This document shows positions 14,301 to 31,025 of a DNA stretch of 64,000 nucleotides, one piece after another. The DNA lies in NCBI GenBank assembly GCA_944391075.1, contig CALXSG010000004.1, forward strand, positions 10,445 to 74,444, in the 5' to 3' direction. Source of the stretch: an uncultured Rickettsiales bacterium. Lineage in GTDB: Bacteria > Pseudomonadota > Alphaproteobacteria > Rickettsiales > UBA1997. The position numbers were made by a program, and so were the translations under genes. The notes beneath the pieces were generated by a model. That model made no database searches, was not told the origin of the DNA, and was given only the letters and a program-made list of their open reading frames with translations. Numbering within the stretch: position 1 is the stretch's first letter; every line of letters starts with the position of its first letter.

Positions 14301-16517
14301 TTACATGCAACTATTAATAGTTCTGCTAATAACATCTAATTGTTGTTCTTTTGTTAATTTAATGAAATTAACAGCATAACCAGAAACTCTAATTGTGAGT
14401 TGTGGATATTTTTCAGGATGGTTCATAGCATCTTCAAGTAATTCTCTAACAAATACATTTACATTAAGATGTTGACCACCTTTTGGTGTAAAGTAACCAT
14501 CAAGTAAAGATACAAGGTTAGTGATTTGCGAATCTTTGTCTTTACCTAATGCTTGTGGAGTAATTGCAAATGTGTATGAAATACCATCTCTTGAATAAGC
14601 AAATGGAAGTTTAGCAACAGAAGATAAAGCTGCAATAGCACCTTTTGTATCTCTACCATTCATAGGGTTAGCACCAGGAGCAAATGGAGTACCAGCTTTT
14701 CTTCCACAAGGTGTAGCACCTGTATTCTTTCCATAAACAACATTTGATGTAATTGTTAAAAGTGATTGAGTTGCTAATGCTCCTCTATATGTCTCATGGC
14801 TAGCCATATAACCCATAAATGTTTTTACTAAATCACAAGCAATTTTATCTGCTTCTTCATCATTATTTCCAAAAGGAACATAATCACCTTCTCTTTCAAA
14901 ATCAACAGCTAAACCTTGTTCGTTTCTAATAACTTTTACTTTGCAATTTTTAATAGCATTTAATGAATCAGCAACAATAGAAAGTCCTGCAATACCTGAT
15001 GCTTCAAATCTTTCTACATCTGTATCGTGTAAAGCCATTTCATATGCTTCATAATCATATTTGTCATGCATGTAGTGAATAATTTTTAAAGCATTACAAT
15101 ATGTTTTAGCAAGCCATTTCATCATTTGATTAAATTTTGCCATAACTTCATCATAATCTAAATATTCACTTGTAATAGGTTCAAACATAGGACCAACTTG
15201 ATCGCCATGAATTTCATCTTTACCGCCGTTTATAGCATAAAGTAAACATTTTACTAAATTAGCTCTTGCGCCGAAGAATTGCATTTGTTTACCAATTTTC
15301 ATTGATGAAACACAACAAGCAATACCATAATCATCACCATAAATTGGTCTCATTAAATCATCGTTTTCATATTGAATAGCAGATGTATCAATAGAAACTT
15401 TTGCACAGAATTTTTTCCAATTTTCAGGAAGATTTTCAGACCATAAAACTGTTAAGTTTGGTTCTGGTGCAGGACCTAAATTATATAATGTATTTAAGAA
15501 TCTAAAAGATGTTTTTGTAACAAGTGTTCTTCCATCAACACCCATACCACCAAGTGATTCTGTAACCCAAGTAGGATCGCCAGTAAATAATGAATTATAT
15601 TCAGGAGTTCTTAAGAATCTAACAATTCTTAATTTAATAATCATTTGATCTACTAACTCTTGTGCTTCTTCTTCTGTTAATTTTCCTTCTTCAATATCTT
15701 TTTCAATATAAATATCAAGGAAAGTTGAAACTCTACCAAGAGACATAGCAGCACCATCTTGATCTTTTACAGCTCCTAAATATGCAAAGTATACCCATTG
15801 TACTGCTTCTTTTGCATTTGTAGCAGGTTTTGATACATCAAAGCCGTAATTAGCACACATTTTTTTGAATGATTTTAAGGCATTGATTTGTTCTGTAAGT
15901 TCTTCTCTCTTTCTAATAATATCTTCAGTATATTCTTCACCACCCATATTTTTGAAATCTTTTTGCTTTTCCTCAATCAATCTATCAACACCATATAAAG
16001 CAACTCTTCTATAATCACCAATAATTCTACCTCTACCATAAGCATCAGGTAAACCTGTAATTATGTGAGCATGTCTGCAAGCTCTAATATCTTGATCGTA
16101 TGCTGAAAATACACCATCATTATGTGTTTTTCTGTATTTTGTAAAGATTTCTTTTGTTAATGGGTCAAGTTCATAACCATAAGATTTTAAAGCTGTTTCA
16201 ACCATTCTTAAACCACCTTTTGGAAAAATACCTCTTTTTAATGGTTTATCTGTTTGAAGTCCAACAATAGTTTCGTTGTCTTTATCAATATAACCTGCAC
16301 CATAAGTTTCAAGACTTTGTGGGAGTTTAGTTTCAGCATCATAAACTCCTTTTTCTCTTTCAACTTTAAACATTTCTGTAAGTTTATCCCAAACTTTTTT
16401 TGTTTTTTCTGTTGCTGGTTTTAAAAATTTATCATCACCAGTATATGGTTTATAATTTTCTTGTATAAAATCTCTAACATCAATTTCATCTTTCCAATAT
16501 TCACCTTTAAAGTTCAT
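14301..16517 (-). CDS. pflB: Pyruvate formate-lyase (formate C-acetyltransferase)
   Basis: Glycyl-radical motif RVSGYAVNF near the C-terminus, active-site GIACCVS, and an N-terminus ([27 protein letters not shown]) typical of PFL. I prefer the ATG at 16517, which has a GGAG RBS 8 nt upstream. The ORF track extends to 16583. Confidence 0.93.
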
Positions 16518-16683
16518 ATTTACTCCATTTTTGTTAATAAAATTCATAAATCTTCTTATAACACATTTAATTCTTATTATCAAGAAAAAAATATTTTATA
16601 ATTTTTATCATAAATATATACTATAAATTATTAATTATTTATTTTAATAAAATTTCATAACAATATTTATAATAAAAATATTT

Positions 16684-19912: not shown

Positions 19913-22900
19913 TTATTTATTTATCTTATCTTTAACACTAGCAACCACTTTACCAGGTACAGATTTGATACCATTCCAAGCTTTACCAGGAGCTTCTTTT
20001 GCAAAATTATAAGCAGTACTTGCACCTCTTTTAATACCATTCCAAGCTTTGCCAGGAGCTTCTTTTACTGTAGTATAAGCCTTAACAGCACCATCCTTTA
20101 TATCATTTGCTTTTTGAATAGCAGCATTTTTAATATTTTCTCCTCTTTGTTGCCATGTTTCTTTCTTGAAATTTTTAGCTACATTACCCCAAGTTCTCTT
20201 AACTCCTGCCGTAAAGCCATCTCTATTCCATTCTTTAAATCCATCTCGAACATATCTACCAAATTTTTTACCTGCATTAACAGCAACTTTTTCCGTACCC
20301 TTTGCAATTTTAGCAACATCTTTAATTCTATTTCTGAATTTTTCACCAGTACCTCCAAAGCTCATATTTCCTTCAGCATCATCTGGTGCAGAAAATATTC
20401 TCTTTGAAAAATTTGGTATTTCATCTAACACTTTTACCATCATATATATAACAACTAATACACCACATAAATAACTAAAAATAGCCAATGGATTTTTATA
20501 TATATGACTAACCGAATAAAAAAGGGCATCCAAACCAAAAAAATTTAATATTTTTTCACCAAAAGCCTTTTCACCTTCTGCTGGGCTATTAGGATTATTT
20601 GCAATAAAACATAAAAAACTTAAACCATTATCATCACAAGTTACAGATGGTAATCTACCAGTATAAGGATCATGGCCATAATATCTACCATCACCAAGTA
20701 CTACATCATCTATTGTTAATAATGCAAAACCTATAAAACCCATTAATAATATCATCTGAAAACAAGCACCCATTAAGTTGGAGAGCCAATTATCAAAAAT
20801 ACCTTTATATTTTGCTATTAACAAAAATGGAAAAATAAAAGGTGAAACAAAAATTAATAATGTAATCATCATAATATTTGTAATATATATATAAAATACC
20901 TTAAAAGATAAGACAAAAACTAAGAATAACATAAATGTTAGTACAAACACTACAAGCATACCAAAAGTTGCACTAAAAAGACAAGATATTAAAAATACAA
21001 TTAATGTTCCACTGCTTACACTTATACCATAATAATTTAATATCTTACAATCTAGTGTATCAAACACCATCAAATATTCTTTACCATCAGGGTATTCGTT
21101 ATCACCAAAATAGCAACCATCATATCTATCACTATATGATGCAACAGGATTACCATTTTCATCATAATCTGTATAGTAACGACAGTTACTGTAATATGTA
21201 TTCTCCATAATTTGTTGATTATCATCATTAGATATTAATAATGACGTTTTATATTCAATATCGACAGGTAATTCTGTTGGTAATACACTTACATCTTCTA
21301 TTATCTTATCTTCTTCTAAACCAACAGGAGTAATTTTAACCTTGTTATATTGAGGTGCCATCATATCTTCACTACAATTTGAATAGCACTTTCTAATAAT
21401 AACAATGTTTCCAAATTCATTTGTTTCATTAATGACATCGCATACCTCTTCACCATTAGAAGCATTAATAACATCCTCCGGCAGTTCTTCTACATTTATT
21501 TTTCGATAACCGTTATATAGAATATCAACATCATTAGAATCTGATGGTTCTGATGTAATATAACATATAGTAGCCTTTCCATTTCCAATATTTACACCGT
21601 TATCACCACCACTATTACTTACTATTTTTGTATTAACGTAGCCAGAGCCTCCTCCGCCTCCACCTGTAAGATACATATTTTGACTGGATGTATAATAAGC
21701 AACCATACTCGATGCTCCACCGCCATAATAACCTCCTCCACCACCACTTCCACCCGCATATCCATCTTGTCCACTTCCACCTTTACCAAACACTCCATTA
21801 TTTAAAGCACAATAATTTAATACACTTGCAGAATTTACCCTTTCAAAATTACACTTATTTCCTAATGCATCACAATTTTGAATACATTTATTATTACTTA
21901 TACAATCTTCATAGCTTAAACACAATGAATTATTAATACAATCATTTATAATATCTTGTGTTTTACATATAAAATTATAAGAGCAGCTACCACCAATACC
22001 ACCAGAAGTTAATGTGCCAGGCGATCCAAAACACTGTCTATTATCTTCACTAAAAATATTGTTACTTTGTCCACCTGAATTATTTCCACCACCCCCATCT
22101 CCACCGGAAAATACACCATTATAAGAAATTCCACCACCACCACCGGCAACCATAATTCTAGATTCCAAACTTCTTTGTGTATTAGTACCACTATCAATTA
22201 ACGTTCTAATATCAGTAGCCCCACCACCTCCATGTCCAACAAGATTTTGATAGCCATAACCACCATTTCCACCACCATTATAACCGCCACAAGAAAAATA
22301 ACTTCCATACATATTTTTAATCTCTTGAGAACAATTTTCATTAGATGCTACACCGCCCACATAAATATATAATTTATTCGGTATTAAAACTTTGGTAAGA
22401 TCTAATTCTCCATATGTATAACCACCTTTTCCCACATTAGCTGTGACTAATTGTCCATTAGCACCTATTACTGGATTGCCATTATTTATAGTATTTGTCA
22501 ATTCTGAACTTGCGCCATATAATTCAACAATTATTTTTAAATAATCACTAGATATATTAAATTCATATTCACCAGGTTCTGAATAAACTGTACAATTCTC
22601 AAGAATTTCTCTAGTTTCAGTATAATAACATTGCTTTACCTTACCTTTAGTAGTAATTTCGTGTTCTTTTCTAACATCACATACAACATTTAAAAAATCA
22701 TTTTTATAATCATCATAATCTAAAAAAGAAAATTCAAACATCTTTGCATTCACAAAACGCAAAGCTTCCATTAGCCAATTATAGAATTTTGTTTGCCAAG
22801 CATTAGTTAATGAAAAATATAACACAATAGCTATTTTAATCAACATCATAATAATAGCTTTAACACTTTTTGTATTAAAAACATCAAGTTCACCAGTAAT

Positions 22901-25051
22901 TAAAAATTTGGCAGAAGCTATTACTATTGCTAAAGTAATAAATAATATTATTATATGTCTAACAGTATTTTGAATCCTAAAAAATATATTATTCTCCTGA
23001 GGTAACTCTTCACCAATTATATAATTATATGCATTTTTATCTCCAGAATATTCAGCATTATATTTTTCATGCCTAATTTCACCAGGTTTAGAAAAAGTAT
23101 CGCGTCCACATAAACCTTCGCTATTAACTGTTTCATCGCTAGATTTACAAGAACTTGTACCAGCTATATTTAAAAACATATTTTTTATAGCCTCTGTGAT
23201 ACACTCAGCCATAGGAGATAAAAAACCTCTAGGCCCACCACCTACAAACCCTGCTATTTCTATATCTTCTAATTTAACTGGATATTGAAAATTTTGCCCA
23301 GAACCCTTAGTAAAATCAAAACATACCTCAGGCAAAAATTTATTATGTGTATCATTTTCATCGGTTATAATTGAATACGTAATAGGCATTTCCTCATATT
23401 CCACACAATGCACATTTTGCTCACAAAAATTTTTTACATTACCATATGATGATGCATGCGTACTTGCAACCGCAGTCGATGTTGTTTCCCATATTTTATC
23501 ATAATCTTGTCCATATCTTGACTGCCATTCATCATAATTATTATTTTCCTTATCTTCACTATCAAAAGGATTCTGACAAGATATATAATCACCATCACAG
23601 TATAAATCTTTAATTTCAGTTCCATATGAAACATTAAAATTATAAGGAAACAAATTAGCCGATCTAACACATAATTTTTTTGATTTTGATGAGCCAACAT
23701 AATAAGAATTTTTATCTAGCACACCTTCATATAATTTATAATAAACTTTTCTATCACCTTTAATATTTAAAGAACAAATATGACTATTATTAGCCATACT
23801 CTGATTTGAGCAAAATGCTATACTATGTTGTCTTGATATTGTGTTATTATTCTCTACTGTAAAATCATAATTTAGACCATTTATTTTTGTATAATAACCG
23901 ACATTTTGAGTTAATTTATTTGGTGCATATAAACAAATACCTCCATTACTTCTTTTTTCACAACATTGTTTAGCTAAACTAAAAAGTAATTCACATTCTT
24001 TAGAATTTCTTGAATATTCAGTTCCATTCATATCAATGCATGGATTGCCTTTATAATCGAATCTATCACAAGCATAATTAGCGGTTTGAGAACCTCTAAA
24101 ATAATATCTTTGCTCATTACTCTTATAGCCTTTTTCTCCTTCAATTCTTGGATCAAAACATCCATAATTTGAACTGTATATCATTTTATTATTAACTACA
24201 ATATCATTATATACAGTGTCAATATGATTACTATTTCTAGGTATTGAAAACTCTTCACCTTCGTATAGCATTTCTCTATAAAAGCGATTTTTTTTATTCC
24301 GTGTAGCAATATTCATTCCAGCGCAATTTGTAGCATCACAAAATTTACTATCTATAAGCATAGAAACCACTGGAAAACACTCTTGTTTAAATTTAGTACA
24401 CTTTGAACCATTATCTAAATTAGCAGTCTTTATACAATCATTTATTATATCTTTTTTTAATGTAACAGTTCCATCATTGGCAACACTAAAATAATTATCA
24501 CAATTATATTTACCAGAAAAAATATTTGATAATTTATATTCATAAGAGTTAGAAAATGCTCCAAATGCTGGATACCAATTAATTTTCGGAGTATTTTTAA
24601 CATTACTAGACAATATTGCATATGTATTCCAATCATAACCGCATATTTTTACAGCATCCCTAATTTCATTTATATCGCCAGTAGAAAATTCATTAGTTAA
24701 AGATCTATTATTAAGAATATAGTTCTGTTCTGTCGTTTTAACAGCACTACCACTAGCTGAACAATATAAAGGAATATTGCCATCATCATCAGTAACAAAA
24801 GCTATATTATTGTTTATAACAGATGACAAATCTACTAAAGCATTGTTTATACCTTGTACTAGTATTGTTGCTTTATTACAAGAATCAATATCCCCATCTA
24901 GAGCTGTATAACCTTTATCCTCTTTTAAAAAATCGGAACATTTAACAATAGACGAAGCAAACGACACTTTTAAGCTATAACTCAACAACGATATAGCTAT
25001 ATATAATATTATTTTTAATATAAAATTTACCTTTTTTCTTATTATCTTCAT
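19913..25051 (-). CDS. Giant VirB6/TrbL-like T4SS inner-membrane protein (1712 aa)
   Basis: Domain order:
- Signal peptide.
- Cys-rich ectodomain.
- Glycine-rich loop domain.
- Polytopic core containing the TrbL/VirB6-like segment LIFVSPFIFPFLLIAKYKGIFDNWLSNLMGACFQ.
- Repeat-bearing basic C-tail.
It follows virB3-virB4 and a VirB6 paralog, and it is paralogous to 25129-28158 over multiple motifs. Confidence 0.8.
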   Translation of the reverse strand: MKIIRKKVNFILKIILYIAISLLSYSLKVSFASSIVKCSDFLKEDKGYTALDGDIDSCNKATILVQGINNALVDLSSVINNNIAFVTDDDGNIPLYCSASGSAVKTTEQNYILNNRSLTNEFSTGDINEIRDAVKICGYDWNTYAILSSNVKNTPKINWYPAFGAFSNSYEYKLSNIFSGKYNCDNYFSVANDGTVTLKKDIINDCIKTANLDNGSKCTKFKQECFPVVSMLIDSKFCDATNCAGMNIATRNKKNRFYREMLYEGEEFSIPRNSNHIDTVYNDIVVNNKMIYSSNYGCFDPRIEGEKGYKSNEQRYYFRGSQTANYACDRFDYKGNPCIDMNGTEYSRNSKECELLFSLAKQCCEKRSNGGICLYAPNKLTQNVGYYTKINGLNYDFTVENNNTISRQHSIAFCSNQSMANNSHICSLNIKGDRKVYYKLYEGVLDKNSYYVGSSKSKKLCVRSANLFPYNFNVSYGTEIKDLYCDGDYISCQNPFDSEDKENNNYDEWQSRYGQDYDKIWETTSTAVASTHASSYGNVKNFCEQNVHCVEYEEMPITYSIITDENDTHNKFLPEVCFDFTKGSGQNFQYPVKLEDIEIAGFVGGGPRGFLSPMAECITEAIKNMFLNIAGTSSCKSSDETVNSEGLCGRDTFSKPGEIRHEKYNAEYSGDKNAYNYIIGEELPQENNIFFRIQNTVRHIIILFITLAIVIASAKFLITGELDVFNTKSVKAIIMMLIKIAIVLYFSLTNAWQTKFYNWLMEALRFVNAKMFEFSFLDYDDYKNDFLNVVCDVRKEHEITTKGKVKQCYYTETREILENCTVYSEPGEYEFNISSDYLKIIVELYGASSELTNTINNGNPVIGANGQLVTANVGKGGYTYGELDLTKVLIPNKLYIYVGGVASNENCSQEIKNMYGSYFSCGGYNGGGNGGYGYQNLVGHGGGGATDIRTLIDSGTNTQRSLESRIMVAGGGGGISYNGVFSGGDGGGGNNSGGQSNNIFSEDNRQCFGSPGTLTSGGIGGSCSYNFICKTQDIINDCINNSLCLSYEDCISNNKCIQNCDALGNKCNFERVNSASVLNYCALNNGVFGKGGSGQDGYAGGSGGGGGYYGGGASSMVAYYTSSQNMYLTGGGGGGSGYVNTKIVSNSGGDNGVNIGNGKATICYITSEPSDSNDVDILYNGYRKINVEELPEDVINASNGEEVCDVINETNEFGNIVIIRKCYSNCSEDMMAPQYNKVKITPVGLEEDKIIEDVSVLPTELPVDIEYKTSLLISNDDNQQIMENTYYSNCRYYTDYDENGNPVASYSDRYDGCYFGDNEYPDGKEYLMVFDTLDCKILNYYGISVSSGTLIVFLISCLFSATFGMLVVFVLTFMLFLVFVLSFKVFYIYITNIMMITLLIFVSPFIFPFLLIAKYKGIFDNWLSNLMGACFQMILLMGFIGFALLTIDDVVLGDGRYYGHDPYTGRLPSVTCDDNGLSFLCFIANNPNSPAEGEKAFGEKILNFFGLDALFYSVSHIYKNPLAIFSYLCGVLVVIYMMVKVLDEIPNFSKRIFSAPDDAEGNMSFGGTGEKFRNRIKDVAKIAKGTEKVAVNAGKKFGRYVRDGFKEWNRDGFTAGVKRTWGNVAKNFKKETWQQRGENIKNAAIQKANDIKDGAVKAYTTVKEAPGKAWNGIKRGASTAYNFAKEAPGKAWNGIKSVPGKVVASVKDKINK
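19968..20066 (-). repeat. 66-nt-period direct repeat encoding KEAPGKAWNGIK x2 in the C-terminal tail of the giant VirB6-like protein
   Basis: The 33-nt units at 19968-20000 and 20034-20066 differ at one base (ataccattccaagctttRccaggagcttctttt). Confidence 0.85.
21554..22576 (-). other. ALK/LTK-type glycine-rich domain (Pfam Gly_rich-like) inserted in the VirB6-like protein (residues ~826-1166)
   Basis: Signature string: GEYEFNISSDYLKIIVELYGA...LYIYVGG...CGGYNGGGNGGYG...GHGGGGATDIRT...RIMVAGGGGG...GGDGGGG...GGSGGGGGYYGGG...LTGGGGGGSGYV...GNGKATICY. Confidence 0.7.
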
Positions 25052-25128: not shown

Positions 25129-28100
25129 TTATCCTTTATCCTGTTCTTTTTGCGCTGCAACTTTTTCTCTTAACTTTGACGTAGAAGATTTATTGACAAT
25201 CTTTTTTACAGCACCAACAGTAAGACGTTTTACAAATAATACCGTCTGCACTGCTTTTCCAGCAACAACCATTGGATTTACATCAGCACCCAAACCTGGT
25301 ATAGCAGCACTACCTGTTAAAGTTGAGGCTATTCTAGGAACTCTATTTAACATATTATCTAAAACCACTACTAAAATAAGAATAGAAAGTAAAGTAATAA
25401 CATCGTTAATTACTACATCTGTAATACGAAAAATAATACCAAATACCAAATCAGTGCTAATATTTGACATTAAACACAATGGGCTATTACGCTTTATATC
25501 AATAATTTTATCACCTGATTTACAATTTTTTAGATCTGCATTACCTTTAAGTTTATCTAATACATTAATCCATATCTTTTGCATTTCAAGTTCTTTTTGT
25601 TCTTGTGATATTCCCTGTTTTTCTAGATCATTTATTTCTGTATTTAAATAATATGAAACGAAAGCATTTCGTTTACTTGTATAAGCAACAAGATCACCCG
25701 TATCTTGATCATAGCATGCAAAACCACAAACCAATTCTTTATTAGGACCTGAACCAGTGAAAAGTCCACTACCTAACATAAAATTATCAATAATCATAAT
25801 AGATATAGAAACAAATGCTACCATTACAAATGGCTGAATAGCATAACCTAATAAATTTTTAAACCATTTCTGAAAAATTCCATTAAATTTTTTAAATAAT
25901 AATGTTGGAATAATAATTGGAGATAAAAATAATAGTATAGTAATTGCAATCATAGAAGCTACATAAATATATACTATTTTTAATGCAAATATAAATAAAG
26001 TTATTCCTAAAAACATTGAAATAAAACCAATAAATAAACCTAGACCAAATGGCCATATAATAGATAATACATATAATTTAACTATTCCCCAACCAGTACC
26101 ATTGTCAAATGCTGAATAGCCAAAATATTTAGCAATTTTACAATCTAGAGCATCAAAGAAAGATACATATCGTCTATCGCTTGGATAATCATCATAGTTA
26201 TTATCATATTTAGCTATAGCCTCAATAATTTCAGGAGAATCATCTGTAAATCTTAAACTTGTAATATCCCCAAAATAACAACCATCATCTCTAACAAGAT
26301 TACCATGTTCATCAACAAGAGTTTCAAAACCTATCTTTGAAACAGTTGAAAATAATAAATCGTTTAAAGCATAAGTAAATTTAAATATTAAATTATACCA
26401 TGATGTATTTACTGTTAATGCTACAATAAAACTAATTTTTACTATTAACATAACAATATCATATCTACTGCCAAGAGCACCACCTTTTATTAAAACATTA
26501 TAACCATATAAAGATATTGCAAAAGCAATAAACATATATGTAATATTTTTAGTATATCTGATAATATCTTGTAATGGATGTTTGTATGAATCAACACCAT
26601 CTGAAGAAACAATATTAGTATCAAATTCTTGCCCAGCTTTAAATATTTCTCCACTTTCACATTCATTCATATGATTAGGAGTTTCTGATATAACCTTACA
26701 TCTAGTATGACCGGCTTTATTTAATAATAAATTTTTCATAGTTTCAACCACACATTCAACAGCAGGAGCAAATATTGTTTTTGGATACAAATCAACAGCA
26801 CGATTATAAGCAGAATATGAAGCATATCCTGTTGTATTATGAGAATTACCAACTAAATTAAGGCACGCTTTATCTAAATATGGTGAATATGTATTAGCAT
26901 AAATAAATTCAATATTATTATTGCTAACTTGAGTGCAATGTCTATTATATTGAAAGAAATTTTTATTTTTACCTTCACATAATGGATAAACTACACCATT
27001 ATCATTACAATCATCTTTATCATATTGTATTTCGCAATTAGCATAATCTCCGCTATCTTGACACGCCTTCATACTATCTTCATTTGGTATTCTTTCAAAA
27101 ACAGATGTAGCATAATCAGAACCACCTTCTACATTAACATTGTCAGGACATAAATTATATGTTTTAATACAATATCTATTAGTATTTTCTACTTCACTAT
27201 CTACAGTAAAGTTTTTAAATACTTTAAATTTGATATCATCTACTTTACATTCATTATCATAGATTGAACAAAATGTAGCTAAATTATTTTTTTCATTTTT
27301 ATATATACAAACACTTTGTTGCGCCTTTAAACAACACTGATACGCTATATCGAATGCATCACCAGTTTTTGATCTTTTTTCTAAATATCTTTCACATAAA
27401 TAATTACCATAATCATAACCTCTCATATAATATGTTTGATAAGCTTGTTCTTCACCTCTAAAAATATCATAATTCTTAGCTTCAGGTCTTGGATCTATAC
27501 AAGCATAATTAATAATCTCTTCACCATCATACATATTTTCTCTAAACACTCTATCATTCTGTGTAAAATAATTACCACCATCAACAGGTTGACAGGTATT
27601 ATCATTATTACCTTTTTGACATCTTTCTAATGCCACTACACCATCACAATCATTAATATTTCTTACACATTTATTTACTTCAAATTTATATGAGCCATTA
27701 AATGCTCCTCGAGTTGGATAATATTTTTTGATATTAGCAAATGCTGAACAATTACCAGCTTCACAACCTCCTGCTTTATTATAATCATTAATAGCTTGCT
27801 CATTACCATAAGTTAACCAATTTGCACCACATATTTTAAAATTTAAAAGAACACTCTGCGATATACTAAATTTATCCTTAAAATCAAATCCACCAAAACT
27901 CTGATTCCACCAACAATATCCATTATCCATTTCCCATTTTGAATTATCTTTTTCGAATATTATCGGCTCTCCACTTACCCAATTATACCCAATTATTTTA
28001 AAACTCGATGAAAATTTTAGTCCATCTGAACCATCCTCAGTAACTTCATATACTTGTTCAAGTGGTCTACTCAAATTAAGATCAGCAAAAGTATCAGAAA

Positions 28101-28158
28101 TATTACTATATAAAGTTAAACAAATAATAAAAATAATTTTATAAATATTTTTTATCAT
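25129..28158 (-). CDS. VirB6/TrbL-like T4SS inner-membrane protein with a Cys-rich N-terminal ectodomain (~1009 aa from the preferred start)
   Basis: Signal peptide MIKNIYKIIFIICLTLYSNISDTFA. The polytopic region contains LFLSPIIIPTLLFKKFNGIFQKWFKNLLGYAIQP, a VirB6/TrbL hallmark. The preferred ATG at 28158 overlaps the virB4 TGA as ATGA. The ORF track extends to 28194. Confidence 0.82.
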   Translation of the reverse strand: MIKNIYKIIFIICLTLYSNISDTFADLNLSRPLEQVYEVTEDGSDGLKFSSSFKIIGYNWVSGEPIIFEKDNSKWEMDNGYCWWNQSFGGFDFKDKFSISQSVLLNFKICGANWLTYGNEQAINDYNKAGGCEAGNCSAFANIKKYYPTRGAFNGSYKFEVNKCVRNINDCDGVVALERCQKGNNDNTCQPVDGGNYFTQNDRVFRENMYDGEEIINYACIDPRPEAKNYDIFRGEEQAYQTYYMRGYDYGNYLCERYLEKRSKTGDAFDIAYQCCLKAQQSVCIYKNEKNNLATFCSIYDNECKVDDIKFKVFKNFTVDSEVENTNRYCIKTYNLCPDNVNVEGGSDYATSVFERIPNEDSMKACQDSGDYANCEIQYDKDDCNDNGVVYPLCEGKNKNFFQYNRHCTQVSNNNIEFIYANTYSPYLDKACLNLVGNSHNTTGYASYSAYNRAVDLYPKTIFAPAVECVVETMKNLLLNKAGHTRCKVISETPNHMNECESGEIFKAGQEFDTNIVSSDGVDSYKHPLQDIIRYTKNITYMFIAFAISLYGYNVLIKGGALGSRYDIVMLIVKISFIVALTVNTSWYNLIFKFTYALNDLLFSTVSKIGFETLVDEHGNLVRDDGCYFGDITSLRFTDDSPEIIEAIAKYDNNYDDYPSDRRYVSFFDALDCKIAKYFGYSAFDNGTGWGIVKLYVLSIIWPFGLGLFIGFISMFLGITLFIFALKIVYIYVASMIAITILLFLSPIIIPTLLFKKFNGIFQKWFKNLLGYAIQPFVMVAFVSISIMIIDNFMLGSGLFTGSGPNKELVCGFACYDQDTGDLVAYTSKRNAFVSYYLNTEINDLEKQGISQEQKELEMQKIWINVLDKLKGNADLKNCKSGDKIIDIKRNSPLCLMSNISTDLVFGIIFRITDVVINDVITLLSILILVVVLDNMLNRVPRIASTLTGSAAIPGLGADVNPMVVAGKAVQTVLFVKRLTVGAVKKIVNKSSTSKLREKVAAQKEQDKG

Positions 28159-30548
28159 AACTTCCTCACTCTTTTGTAAAATATTGGCAACCAATCTTCT
28201 GGTTTATCACTTTTTATTTCTTCAATAATTTGATCAAGTAATAAAACAGTTTCAGCTCTTCCAGATAATACATTTATTACATCTGTCATACCTGATAAAT
28301 CAATTTTTGCAACAACACCACTATTATCTTGTTTAATTAAAAAATATCTACTACCGGGATCAATACTCTTTATAAGTTGAAATTCTCTTGCTGATAGCAT
28401 AAATACACTTCTATAAGCTTCTGTAGCTCTTAAATTAGGTAAATAAATTTGAGTAGCCGTTTGTTGAACAAGTGTATCAGAAATAGCACTTTTTGTGGCA
28501 TCTTCAACCGATTGTGTAGCAAAGACAACAAACGCATTTAACTTTCTTAAAACTTTTAACCAATCCTTAATTCTAGGTGCAAAAACAGGATTATCAATTA
28601 ATGCCCAAGCCTCATCAAGAATAATCATTGTAGGTGTTCCATCTAAAGAAGCATTAATTCTTTGAAATAAATAAAGCAAAACAGGGTTAATACTAATTTT
28701 ATCTTTTAATAATTCGCCCATTTCAAAACCAAATATCTTAGATGAAAAGAAATCAATATTATCGGTTTCATTATCAAATAATTTTGCACGTGAACCATCA
28801 GAATGCCACATTTCTAACCTTCCCGCTAATGTATCAGGACCAGAAATACCTAAGAATGGTGCTATATTTCTTAAAATTCTTTTTTTGGGTGGTAATTTAT
28901 AATTACCATTAACAGCTTCTGTAATTCTAGCCATATCACTTGCTGTAACTTTTTCACCATTAACACTTACCATACTTCTAATCCAGTCTATTAGAAAATC
29001 TTTATTTTCATTGGTTTCTGGCAGTAATAATGGATTAAAGCCAGCTGATTTACTAGTTTCTATTGTTGTATATTTACCACCCATAGCTCTAATAAATATT
29101 TCCGCACCTCTATCCTTATCAAAAAAGAACATTCTGCAATTAAATTTTTGTGCCTGTGCACATAAAAAGTTCATTGTAACTGTTTTACCACTACCAGTAG
29201 GTCCAACAATCATTGTGTGTCCAACATCCCTAACATGAAAATTAAAGAAAAATGGTGTACCTGAAACCGTATTTAAAACAGTAACAGCAGGTCCCCAATG
29301 ATTTCTTCTAATTCTACCAGAAGGATAATTATGTAAAGAGGCAAAACTTGCTAGATTTAATGTATTTATTGTAGCTGCTCTTACAACATATTGGAAATTT
29401 CCAGGCAACTGTGCCCAAAATACAGCTTCCATATTCATTCTTTCTCTAACAGCATTTATACCCATATTAGAAAATTCTACAACAATCATTGATAAATCAT
29501 TCTCAATTGATTTTATGGTATCATCTATACACATAACCGTCATATGATGCTTTCCAAAAGCAAACTTACCACTCATAATTTCATCTAATGCTTGATCTAT
29601 TTCTTGAATTTGAGATACAGCAACATCTTCAGATTGAATCATTCTCCTTTGTTGTAATTGTATACTACTAATAGCAATTGTTCTATTAACAAATTTAAAT
29701 GATTGTGAAATAATAAATTCAAATGGCAATTGCAAAAAACCATCCATCATACCAGCATTTGTTGCATTTCTATATTCTTTTAAAGAAACCATACCACCAT
29801 ATTTAGTTTCAAATGGCATTTTTACTTCAAAATTTTTAGCGCCAAAATATATTCTATTGGTTGGCAAATAAGATGCAAAACCATATGGAATAAATCTATA
29901 ATTTTGTACATAACCGCAATTAACTATACTTCCTAAAAAATTACATATTTCTGAGAAAATACCATCACTGGTTTCCACAACATCAAGTAATTCAGCACCA
30001 TAATTTGATAGACCATTCAAAATTCTAGATGTCAATTCTTCTATTTCACTAAAATTTTCTCTCATATTTTTGATTCTAGCATTTTCATCAGCTTTATTTC
30101 GAAGTCTTCTGGCAAAAGTCGCAACTTTTGCTAAACCGGCTTTGTCATCCATTCTTATAATACTAACATACTCTTCATTAGCAAAACTTCTATCACCATC
30201 ATGCTTGCGCTTCCATTCTTCATTTACTTTTTTTGCAAAAATATTTGTCATCTCTCCTTCTGGAAAAGCCTCTTTTCTTCGTCTAATTGTATGAAAATAA
30301 AGCCCTAAATTACCAGAAGCCATACTTTTAAATAAATTATTTCTATGATTCTTCTTTATATCTATTTCTTCGTCATCAGCAGTTTCAAAAGAAAAACCTT
30401 TAATTCTTACAACTCTTAATAAGGCATTATCTTTCATTAAAATGGTATTAGAATTCCAAAAACATTTATATGGTATGTAAATGGAAGATGAAGTTTCCCA
30501 TTTGAAATATTTATTTTTAGGAGGTTGTATAATGCCTAATTTCATCAA
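28155..30548 (-). CDS. virB4: Type IV secretion system ATPase VirB4
   Basis: 797 aa. Walker A GPTGSGKT and Walker B MIILDEAW. Size and neighbours (virB3 upstream, virB6-like downstream) fit. Confidence 0.93.
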   Translation of the reverse strand: MMKLGIIQPPKNKYFKWETSSSIYIPYKCFWNSNTILMKDNALLRVVRIKGFSFETADDEEIDIKKNHRNNLFKSMASGNLGLYFHTIRRRKEAFPEGEMTNIFAKKVNEEWKRKHDGDRSFANEEYVSIIRMDDKAGLAKVATFARRLRNKADENARIKNMRENFSEIEELTSRILNGLSNYGAELLDVVETSDGIFSEICNFLGSIVNCGYVQNYRFIPYGFASYLPTNRIYFGAKNFEVKMPFETKYGGMVSLKEYRNATNAGMMDGFLQLPFEFIISQSFKFVNRTIAISSIQLQQRRMIQSEDVAVSQIQEIDQALDEIMSGKFAFGKHHMTVMCIDDTIKSIENDLSMIVVEFSNMGINAVRERMNMEAVFWAQLPGNFQYVVRAATINTLNLASFASLHNYPSGRIRRNHWGPAVTVLNTVSGTPFFFNFHVRDVGHTMIVGPTGSGKTVTMNFLCAQAQKFNCRMFFFDKDRGAEIFIRAMGGKYTTIETSKSAGFNPLLLPETNENKDFLIDWIRSMVSVNGEKVTASDMARITEAVNGNYKLPPKKRILRNIAPFLGISGPDTLAGRLEMWHSDGSRAKLFDNETDNIDFFSSKIFGFEMGELLKDKISINPVLLYLFQRINASLDGTPTMIILDEAWALIDNPVFAPRIKDWLKVLRKLNAFVVFATQSVEDATKSAISDTLVQQTATQIYLPNLRATEAYRSVFMLSAREFQLIKSIDPGSRYFLIKQDNSGVVAKIDLSGMTDVINVLSGRAETVLLLDQIIEEIKSDKPEDWLPIFYKRVRKL

Positions 30549-30561
30549 TTTGTCCCATTAA

Positions 30562-30861
30562 TTAATAAAGGTCATAAGAATTTGTTCCATTATAAAATGT
30601 CCTGTTTTTACATCTCATAAAATTGCTACTTTTCATAATAACAATCTCTAAAGCTAGTGGTTCTTTTAAACAAATTATATAAGCAATACCGTGTAAAAGT
30701 GGTAACATAACAATTAAATAAATAAATTTATTTGTCATCACAAATAGTAATAATGAACCTAGAATATTTAAAGAAGCAAACACATAGGACACACCAAGAA
30801 TCATACTTGATCTGGTCAAACCTAAGAACAATGAATCAACTTCTATTTTTCCATCAGCCAT
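30562..30861 (-). CDS. virB3: Type IV secretion system protein VirB3
   Basis: From ATG 30861: MADGKIEVDSLFLGLTRSSMILGVSY..., with two TM helices. This is typical VirB3 size and motif (LF.GLTRP.M.GV). The longer ORF-track start at 30954 adds only an I/L/F-rich extension. Confidence 0.8.
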   Translation of the reverse strand: MADGKIEVDSLFLGLTRSSMILGVSYVFASLNILGSLLLFVMTNKFIYLIVMLPLLHGIAYIICLKEPLALEIVIMKSSNFMRCKNRTFYNGTNSYDLY

Positions 30862-31025
30862 AAAAAATATAACGTTATATAATATATATATTAACAAGTA
30901 TAAAACTAAAATCAAGAAAAAAACAAAGATATTTTTGTTTTTTAAAAAAATCAAACTATATAAAAGTGTTGCAATATTAAAAAATAAAATTAAAATTATA
31001 GTAATTTGAATGAATAAGGAAAAAA

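Follow-up and report, generated by a model that had tools for sequence, protein, structure and literature searches.

A cysteine-rich N-terminal domain shared by two extended VirB6 paralogs of an uncultured Rickettsiales bacterium

The closest described relatives of the proteins considered here are the extended VirB6 proteins of the rvh-type type IV secretion systems (T4SSs) of Rickettsiales, known as RvhB6a-e in Rickettsia and VirB6-1 to VirB6-4 in Anaplasmataceae. Their genes occur in multiple copies after virB3-virB4 (PMC2653234, PMC7648143), and the proteins span 700-2000+ amino acids (aa), with large flanks in addition to a TrbL core, in systems that have no VirB5 (PMC11077975, PMC2653234). 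The flanks of Rickettsia VirB6 proteins have been described as divergent, with no known role (PMC2653234), published attention to extended VirB6 proteins has gone to central and C-terminal or C-proximal extensions (PMC12857230, PMC7648143), and, according to a 2025 review, what these architectures contribute "is not yet known" (PMC12857230). How the oversized Rickettsiales VirB6 proteins function, and how secretion proceeds when VirB5 is missing, are acknowledged open points. Here we describe a cysteine-rich N-terminal domain carried by two adjacent VirB6 paralogs in a 64,000-nucleotide stretch of DNA, hereafter the window, from an uncultured Rickettsiales bacterium (assembly GCA_944391075.1, contig CALXSG010000004.1, positions 10,445 to 74,444). 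We found no description of a Cys-rich N-terminal VirB6 domain in the literature searched.

The two paralogs are encoded on the minus strand of the window: paralog A (P0001, 1009 aa) at 25129..28158 and paralog B (P0002, 1712 aa) at 19913..25051. Each begins with a Sec-type signal peptide recognized by inspection, with predicted cleavage at ...SDTFA|DL after residue 25 in A (residues 1-26, 28081..28158) and at ...VSFA|SS after residue 32 in B; in A this region is modeled by AlphaFold2 (AF2) as a helix at residues 5-23, and its N-terminus is kept in homologs. The original prediction had proposed that a signal peptide and a paralogous Cys-rich region open both proteins, and BLASTP, profile searches and inspection agree. 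P0001 108-603 matches P0002 135-772 at E 1e-21, with 22% identity and many gaps, and a profile built from A-type homologs only, with P0002 left out, matches P0002 126-659 at E 1.4e-34. All six motif pairs cited in that prediction were found in register in the formal alignment of the N regions, and in a profile-based alignment 18 Cys positions coincide between P0001 and P0002. The interval it had assigned to the domain, 25129-28158, does lie in the shorter paralog and is the whole of its gene; the domain itself occupies only about 26554..28080 in A (residues 27-535) and 22964..24952 in B (residues 34-696). Likewise, its size estimate of roughly 550-690 aa is close to the 509 aa (A) and 663 aa (B) that we measured. 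The N regions contain 26 Cys in A (5.1%) and 28 in B (4.2%), versus 1.4% in the long open reading frames (ORFs) of the window. A chance likeness between two Cys-rich proteins of low GC content was considered and is ruled out by the E-values from the profile searches, by the 18 shared Cys positions and by motif conservation across 182 proteins. While the flanks of the five Rickettsia paralogs have been reported as mutually unrelated (PMC2653234), the two paralogs described here share their N-terminal domain.

Both proteins are extended VirB6 proteins of the Rickettsiales rvh type, being multi-copy, VirB5-less and from the order Rickettsiales. P0001 scores 41.9 bits against Pfam TrbL (PF04610), above the cut-off of 25.9, whereas P0002 falls below it with 19.3 bits; the core of P0002 nevertheless aligns to that of P0001 at E 9e-33. 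A hydropathy scan of P0001 gives five or more hydrophobic helices, and its gene stands beside virB3-virB4. Fold comparison, made with the P0001 model, matches the TrwI/VirB6 chains of 7O3V, 8RT9 and 8RTD with Foldseek probabilities of 0.97-1.0, and the core has a target TM-score of 0.42-0.52. VirB6 proteins conserve an essential Trp that follows the core helices (PMC2653234); W765 of P0001, a candidate counterpart of the Agrobacterium Trp, falls inside the TrbL match and is retained in at least 90% of 95 homologs. In terms of extension type, the additional domain of P0001 is N-proximal rather than central or C-proximal, and P0002 combines the N domain with a central insert.

The shared region is a genuine, conserved and lineage-specific domain family. 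A word-indexed search with residues 27-535 of P0001 returned 39 proteins, nearly all of them marked TrbL, and a profile search of 1.84 billion representative proteins returned 214 clusters at E <= 1e-3, 172 of them at E <= 1e-30. By local hidden Markov models (HMMs), the N domain is combined with a VirB6/TrbL core in 169 of the 182 retrieved proteins and always comes first; in the other 13, most of which are fragments, no core was detected. The domain gene usually lies directly after virB4 in the 46 loci examined from uncultured Rickettsiales and alphaproteobacterial metagenome-assembled genomes (MAGs), whose record titles name termite, deer and other gut samples as well as freshwater lakes. 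One gut clade has the same tandem A and B arrangement as the window. Within this clade the A and B types are reciprocally monophyletic in the domain tree and show parallel internal branching, which indicates that the duplication is old and that both copies have been kept.

About 20 Cys of the domain are invariant or nearly so, and three parts can be told apart in paralog A: a hypervariable leader (residues 27-99), a family-specific core (about 100-410) and a membrane-proximal piece (about 411-510). The domain as a whole evolves at the pace of the membrane protein to which it is attached, with a mean identity of homologs to P0001 of 34% in the domain versus 33% in the VirB6 core. The leader differs, with a mean identity of 16%; between P0001 and its closest homolog, P0003, identity is 48% over residues 27-99 versus 93-98% elsewhere. 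As a separate observation, the hypervariable stretch after the signal peptide falls at about 27850-28010 of the window (P0001 about 50-105), and distant relatives have a pair of hydrophobic helices there.

These rates bear on the idea, raised in the original prediction, that the domain is an adhesin- or receptor-like part of the apparatus. According to this idea the domain would be a surface head that binds host or prey, carried through the outer-membrane core or placed at the pilus tip like VirB5. The hypervariability of the first ~70 mature residues would suit such a role, as would a novel disulfide-rich fold of the kind seen in many extracellular binders, and VirB5, the usual tip adhesin, was not found. 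Surface exposure of extended VirB6 parts has also been reported in Anaplasma and other Rickettsiales (PMC7648143), but in Anaplasma it concerned C-terminal repeats and not N-terminal regions. Furthermore, most of the domain has diverged no more rapidly than the membrane core and includes dozens of invariant residues. The domain is also covalently continuous with an inner-membrane helix that lies some 50 residues away, and no cleavage site is apparent. A rate equal to that of the core, together with invariant motifs, argues for an internal part of the machine rather than a host-facing binder. We therefore find the adhesin or receptor role unsupported and consider it unlikely.

In regard to its distribution, the domain is confined to a narrow group. 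It was detected in 40 of 401 Rickettsiales genomes, all of which belong to one family of the GTDB taxonomy, where it spans 12 genera and every sampled member. The best 120 matches in a protein search with VirB4 likewise all came from this family. In contrast, the 361 genomes sampled from the other Rickettsiales families, among them two that we take to be R. typhi-like and Neorickettsia-like (N. sennetsu), gave no match in a profile search at E <= 1e-3, and the domain was also absent from 400 other alphaproteobacterial genomes. The order searched is the Rickettsiales in the classical sense: TrbL is present in 395 of the 401 genomes over 39 families, and one sampled genome has five TrbL ORFs of 1135, 886, 674, 971 and 1154 aa, the lengths given for R. 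typhi RvhB6 proteins in PMC2653234.

More sensitive comparisons divide the domain. An HMM search (--max) of 15 VirB6 loci from other Rickettsiales families gave no full-domain match, yet recurrent weak matches of profile positions ~441-473 (APxVECxxETxKNxxxN) appeared just before the core in eight VirB6-like ORFs. Most of these fell on the paralogs whose cores scored highest, and they included the 674-aa protein of the R. typhi-like genome and a Neorickettsia-like genome. Profile-profile comparison with hhalign, between the 169-sequence family profile and the N regions of 30 Anaplasmataceae VirB6-1 orthologs, aligned 48 columns corresponding to P0001 ~411-474 with 85.7% probability (P 5.5e-6), around the shared motif PYxDxAC..VG..FxAPxVxCxxExxxN. 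For residues ~100-410 there was no significant match to Anaplasmataceae VirB6-1 (next-best P 0.02 and 0.36), and an earlier hhalign comparison with small alignments had likewise recovered only the membrane-proximal piece. On these alignments, the sharing of the membrane-proximal piece extends beyond the family, clearly to Anaplasmataceae and weakly to other families, while the ~300-residue core is specific to one family at the level of detection. The question of whether other Rickettsiales or Holosporales VirB6 paralogs carry the region thus has a mostly negative answer, for other families as for the 400 alphaproteobacteria, apart from the ~65-residue membrane-proximal piece; the presence of Holosporales in the sample is not established.

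This partial match invites an evolutionary explanation, namely that the domain is a diverged and enlarged version of an ancestral Cys-rich ectodomain of the first VirB6 paralog of all Rickettsiales, represented elsewhere by Anaplasmataceae VirB6-1 and the Rickettsia RvhB6b-like protein. Besides the hhalign result and the recurrent weak matches before the core, it is consistent with the composition of the Anaplasmataceae VirB6-1 N regions, which are also Cys-rich and have an even Cys count in 28 of 30 cases. By eye, they also resemble the domain in 'NPFC + hydrophobic hairpin + C.W' and 'YYP..SYK.EV..C', although these motifs are short and provide a lead only. Set against this origin are the lack of a significant profile-profile match over residues ~100-410 and the absence of the domain from all 361 genomes of other families. 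We regard common descent from such an ectodomain as a tentative possibility; because it concerns origin, it is compatible with the functional interpretation that we prefer below.

The Cys content of the domain suggests where it resides. An even number of Cys is found in the N region of 149 of 169 homologs (binomial p 1e-25, a value inflated by relatedness), versus 100 of 169 in the core, and variable Cys columns come and go in pairs, as in columns 351/398 (r = 1.0) and 384/394 (r = 0.8). Even counts and paired gain and loss point to disulfides, and disulfides to a periplasmic location. The element order of paralog A agrees with this: the signal peptide and N domain are followed by two hydrophobic helices (residues 539-586, 26401..26544; helices at 530-557 and 565-583 in the AF2 model) and then by the remainder of the protein (residues 587-1009, 25132..26400), which comprises a loop with the two invariant Cys C627 and C673, the TrbL core and a C-terminal tail. 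R388 VirB6 has only alpha1 and alpha2 embedded in the membrane, with everything else assembled as a pentamer in the periplasm (PMC9259494, PMC12857230). By analogy, the domain would be periplasmic, and the predicted topology of P0001 fits that of R388 VirB6. In line with this layout, the corresponding loop of paralog B houses a domain that is extracellular in animal ALK/LTK receptors. Signal peptide, topology, Cys parity and paired Cys changes together support the earlier proposal that a separate extracytoplasmic module, rich in disulfides, is fused ahead of the VirB6 core.

The domain was not recognized by the model that made the original prediction, and searches of Pfam, NCBIfam, PDB sequences and PDB structures likewise returned no known family or fold. 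The AF2 model of full-length P0001, made from 95 sequences, has a mean predicted local distance difference test score (pLDDT) of 85.8 and a predicted TM-score (pTM) of 0.67, with pLDDT of 90-97 over residues 100-410 and a mixed alpha/beta fold; it supersedes a mediocre domain-only model from 14 sequences (pLDDT 68). Foldseek with the AF2 model gave no fold match to the N domain in the PDB, and a PDB sequence profile search at E <= 10 was empty. The predicted fold is thus previously undescribed relative to the PDB. Another possibility considered is that the domain binds metal or acts as an enzyme, such as a periplasmic hydrolase whose site draws on the conserved His, Cys, Ser and Asp residues (RHC, GxSHN, AGHTxC). 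P0001 does have a set of invariant or near-invariant polar residues, H407, S439, H440, N441, H484, D222 and R224, from which a catalytic or metal site might be built. However, no likeness to any enzyme family or fold emerged from the searches, and most of the conserved Cys are better accounted for by disulfides, which makes such an activity very improbable.

A more plausible role emerges from comparison with systems in which VirB6 has been placed in the machine. The R388 stalk of TrwI/VirB6 and TrwJ/VirB5 (7O3V, 8RT9, 8RTD) resembles the proteins described here in the core fold and in having two N-proximal membrane helices with the remainder periplasmic, as predicted here. It differs in that TrwI has no N-terminal domain and is accompanied by a separate VirB5 pentamer, which sits on the VirB6 pentamer in canonical T4SSs (PMC9259494), whereas here a domain of ~500 aa precedes helix 1 and VirB5 was not found. 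VirB5 (PF07996) had no match in the genome to which the window belongs and, across 61 genomes of the family, none that exceeded the Pfam cut-off; VirB2 is present in the window's own genome. A VirB6 N-terminus that binds VirB10 in the periplasm is known from Brucella and Agrobacterium, according to work cited in PMC7648143 and PMC9259494. This N-terminus, too, is periplasmic and ahead of helix 1, and it provides a precedent for contacts within the machine; it is, however, a short peptide and not a disulfide-rich domain of ~500 residues.

Our preferred interpretation, to which we give somewhat better than even credence, is that the domain is a periplasmic module built into the VirB6 base of the stalk in a VirB5-less rvh-type T4SS. 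Sec-dependent export would bring it into the periplasm, where about 10-13 disulfides would stabilize it and the first membrane helix of VirB6 would anchor it. As the base of the T4SS stalk is a VirB6 pentamer, five copies of this ~55 kDa module would be arranged around or on that base, perhaps as a fixed structural collar or platform that contacts the VirB2 pilin, VirB10 and VirB8/9. Paralogs A and B, the latter with extra loop inserts, may give alternative or mixed stalks. The exact position of the module and its scaffold function are inferred by analogy with these other machines. Since VirB5 was not found and a VirB5 pentamer sits on VirB6 in canonical systems, a stalk-base module is favored, and it could take on part of the VirB5 role by analogy rather than homology. 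In a stronger form of this idea, the N domain would do the work of VirB5 as a fused substitute, forming the upper stalk, nucleating VirB2 polymerization or capping the channel; we think this rather doubtful. If correct, it would explain how VirB5-less rvh-type systems are built, and the Cys-rich VirB6 N regions of other Rickettsiales would be diverged versions of the same solution.

Several observations weigh against a stalk-base module, and some of them particularly against replacement of VirB5. The N domain has no sequence or fold likeness to VirB5/TraC/TrwJ: Pfam (PF07996 included) and PDB sequences at E <= 10 gave no match, and Foldseek finds the TrwI chains of 7O3V and not the TrwJ chains. 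In the stalk, alpha1 of VirB6 has its N-terminus at the periphery close to the membrane and not at the apex, which leaves the geometry uncertain, and other VirB5-less Rickettsiales manage without the domain. The structure models are of monomers only, and the periplasmic case is purely computational, with a topology taken from a simple hydropathy scan and the R388 analogy that could be altered by the extra hydrophobic helices ahead of the domain in some relatives. Disulfide chemistry presents a further difficulty. The two DsbA-family ORFs of the window's own genome (contig C2:9745-10185 and contig C6:661-1113) speak for the preferred reading, but DsbB (PF02600) was not found in this genome; with fermentative genes in this genome (PFL, window 14301-16583), the organism looks anaerobic, and the re-oxidation of DsbA is unexplained.

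Our findings define a well-modeled domain family of no known fold at the place where the stalk is built, and thus provide a concrete target for structural work and for multimer modeling of the rvh stalk. The carriers are uncultured bacteria of gut and freshwater habitats, which limits the practical impact. Two further features emerged from this analysis that we did not find described: the ~65-residue piece before the first membrane helix, common to Rickettsiales families, and the disulfide-rich N regions on the first VirB6 paralog in the Anaplasmataceae genomes examined. These features, with Cys-rich N regions of even count, are points of likeness between the present proteins and the described rvh VirB6 proteins; the ~300-residue core, undetected in the other families, is one point of difference.

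The genes of the islet follow one another on the minus strand in the order virB3, virB4, VirB6 A, VirB6 B and then an rRNA adenine dimethylase gene. The virB3-like gene comes first (30562..30954; Pfam VirB3 PF05101, E 2e-19), followed by the virB4-like ATPase gene (28155..30548; Pfam CagE_TrbE_VirB, E 2e-53; sequence gaggaagttATGA). Translational coupling of virB4 and VirB6 A is suggested by the sequence, because the TGA stop of the former and the ATG of the latter overlap as ATGA (window 28155-28158) with a GAGGA motif 6 bases upstream. The spacer between genes A and B is 77 bases. In paralog B, the loop after the shared N domain, and outside it, carries an ALK/LTK glycine-rich domain (residues 842-1155, 21587..22528; Pfam PF12810, E 6e-20), a domain that is extracellular in the ALK/LTK receptors of animals. 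From sequence comparison, the periplasmic loop of paralog B looks like a site at which domains are swapped while the N domain stays constant. Among B-type orthologs, the PF12810 insert is present at two loci (L003, L004) and absent at two others (L001, L010).

Other observations concern VirB6 proteins beyond this pair. A helix motif, roughly (V/I)(V/I)xEC(I/V)xE(S/T)LxN(I/L)(F/L), stands ahead of the first membrane helix in one VirB6 paralog at many loci of other Rickettsiales families (L053-L067, L069-L098), including R. typhi-like, Neorickettsia-like and Anaplasmataceae genomes and several MAG families, and the N regions concerned have 10-16 Cys, nearly always an even number. P0095, a 7775-aa protein from a JGI (Joint Genome Institute) metagenome, has the N domain at residues 255-782, then the VirB6 core and a C-terminal tail of ~6,900 residues, and can be compared with the giant Anaplasma VirB6-4 proteins. 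The window's own genome (1.16 Mb, 95% complete) encodes exactly two copies of the Cys-rich N domain and four VirB6-like ORFs in total. The third and fourth of these lie outside the virB3-virB4 islet, at G000:C17:8877-9497 (L049) and G000:C3:29707-30402 (L050), in open frames of 1629 and 2127 aa, and each has a long N-terminal region that bears no relation to the Cys-rich domain and ends in a long, charged tail.

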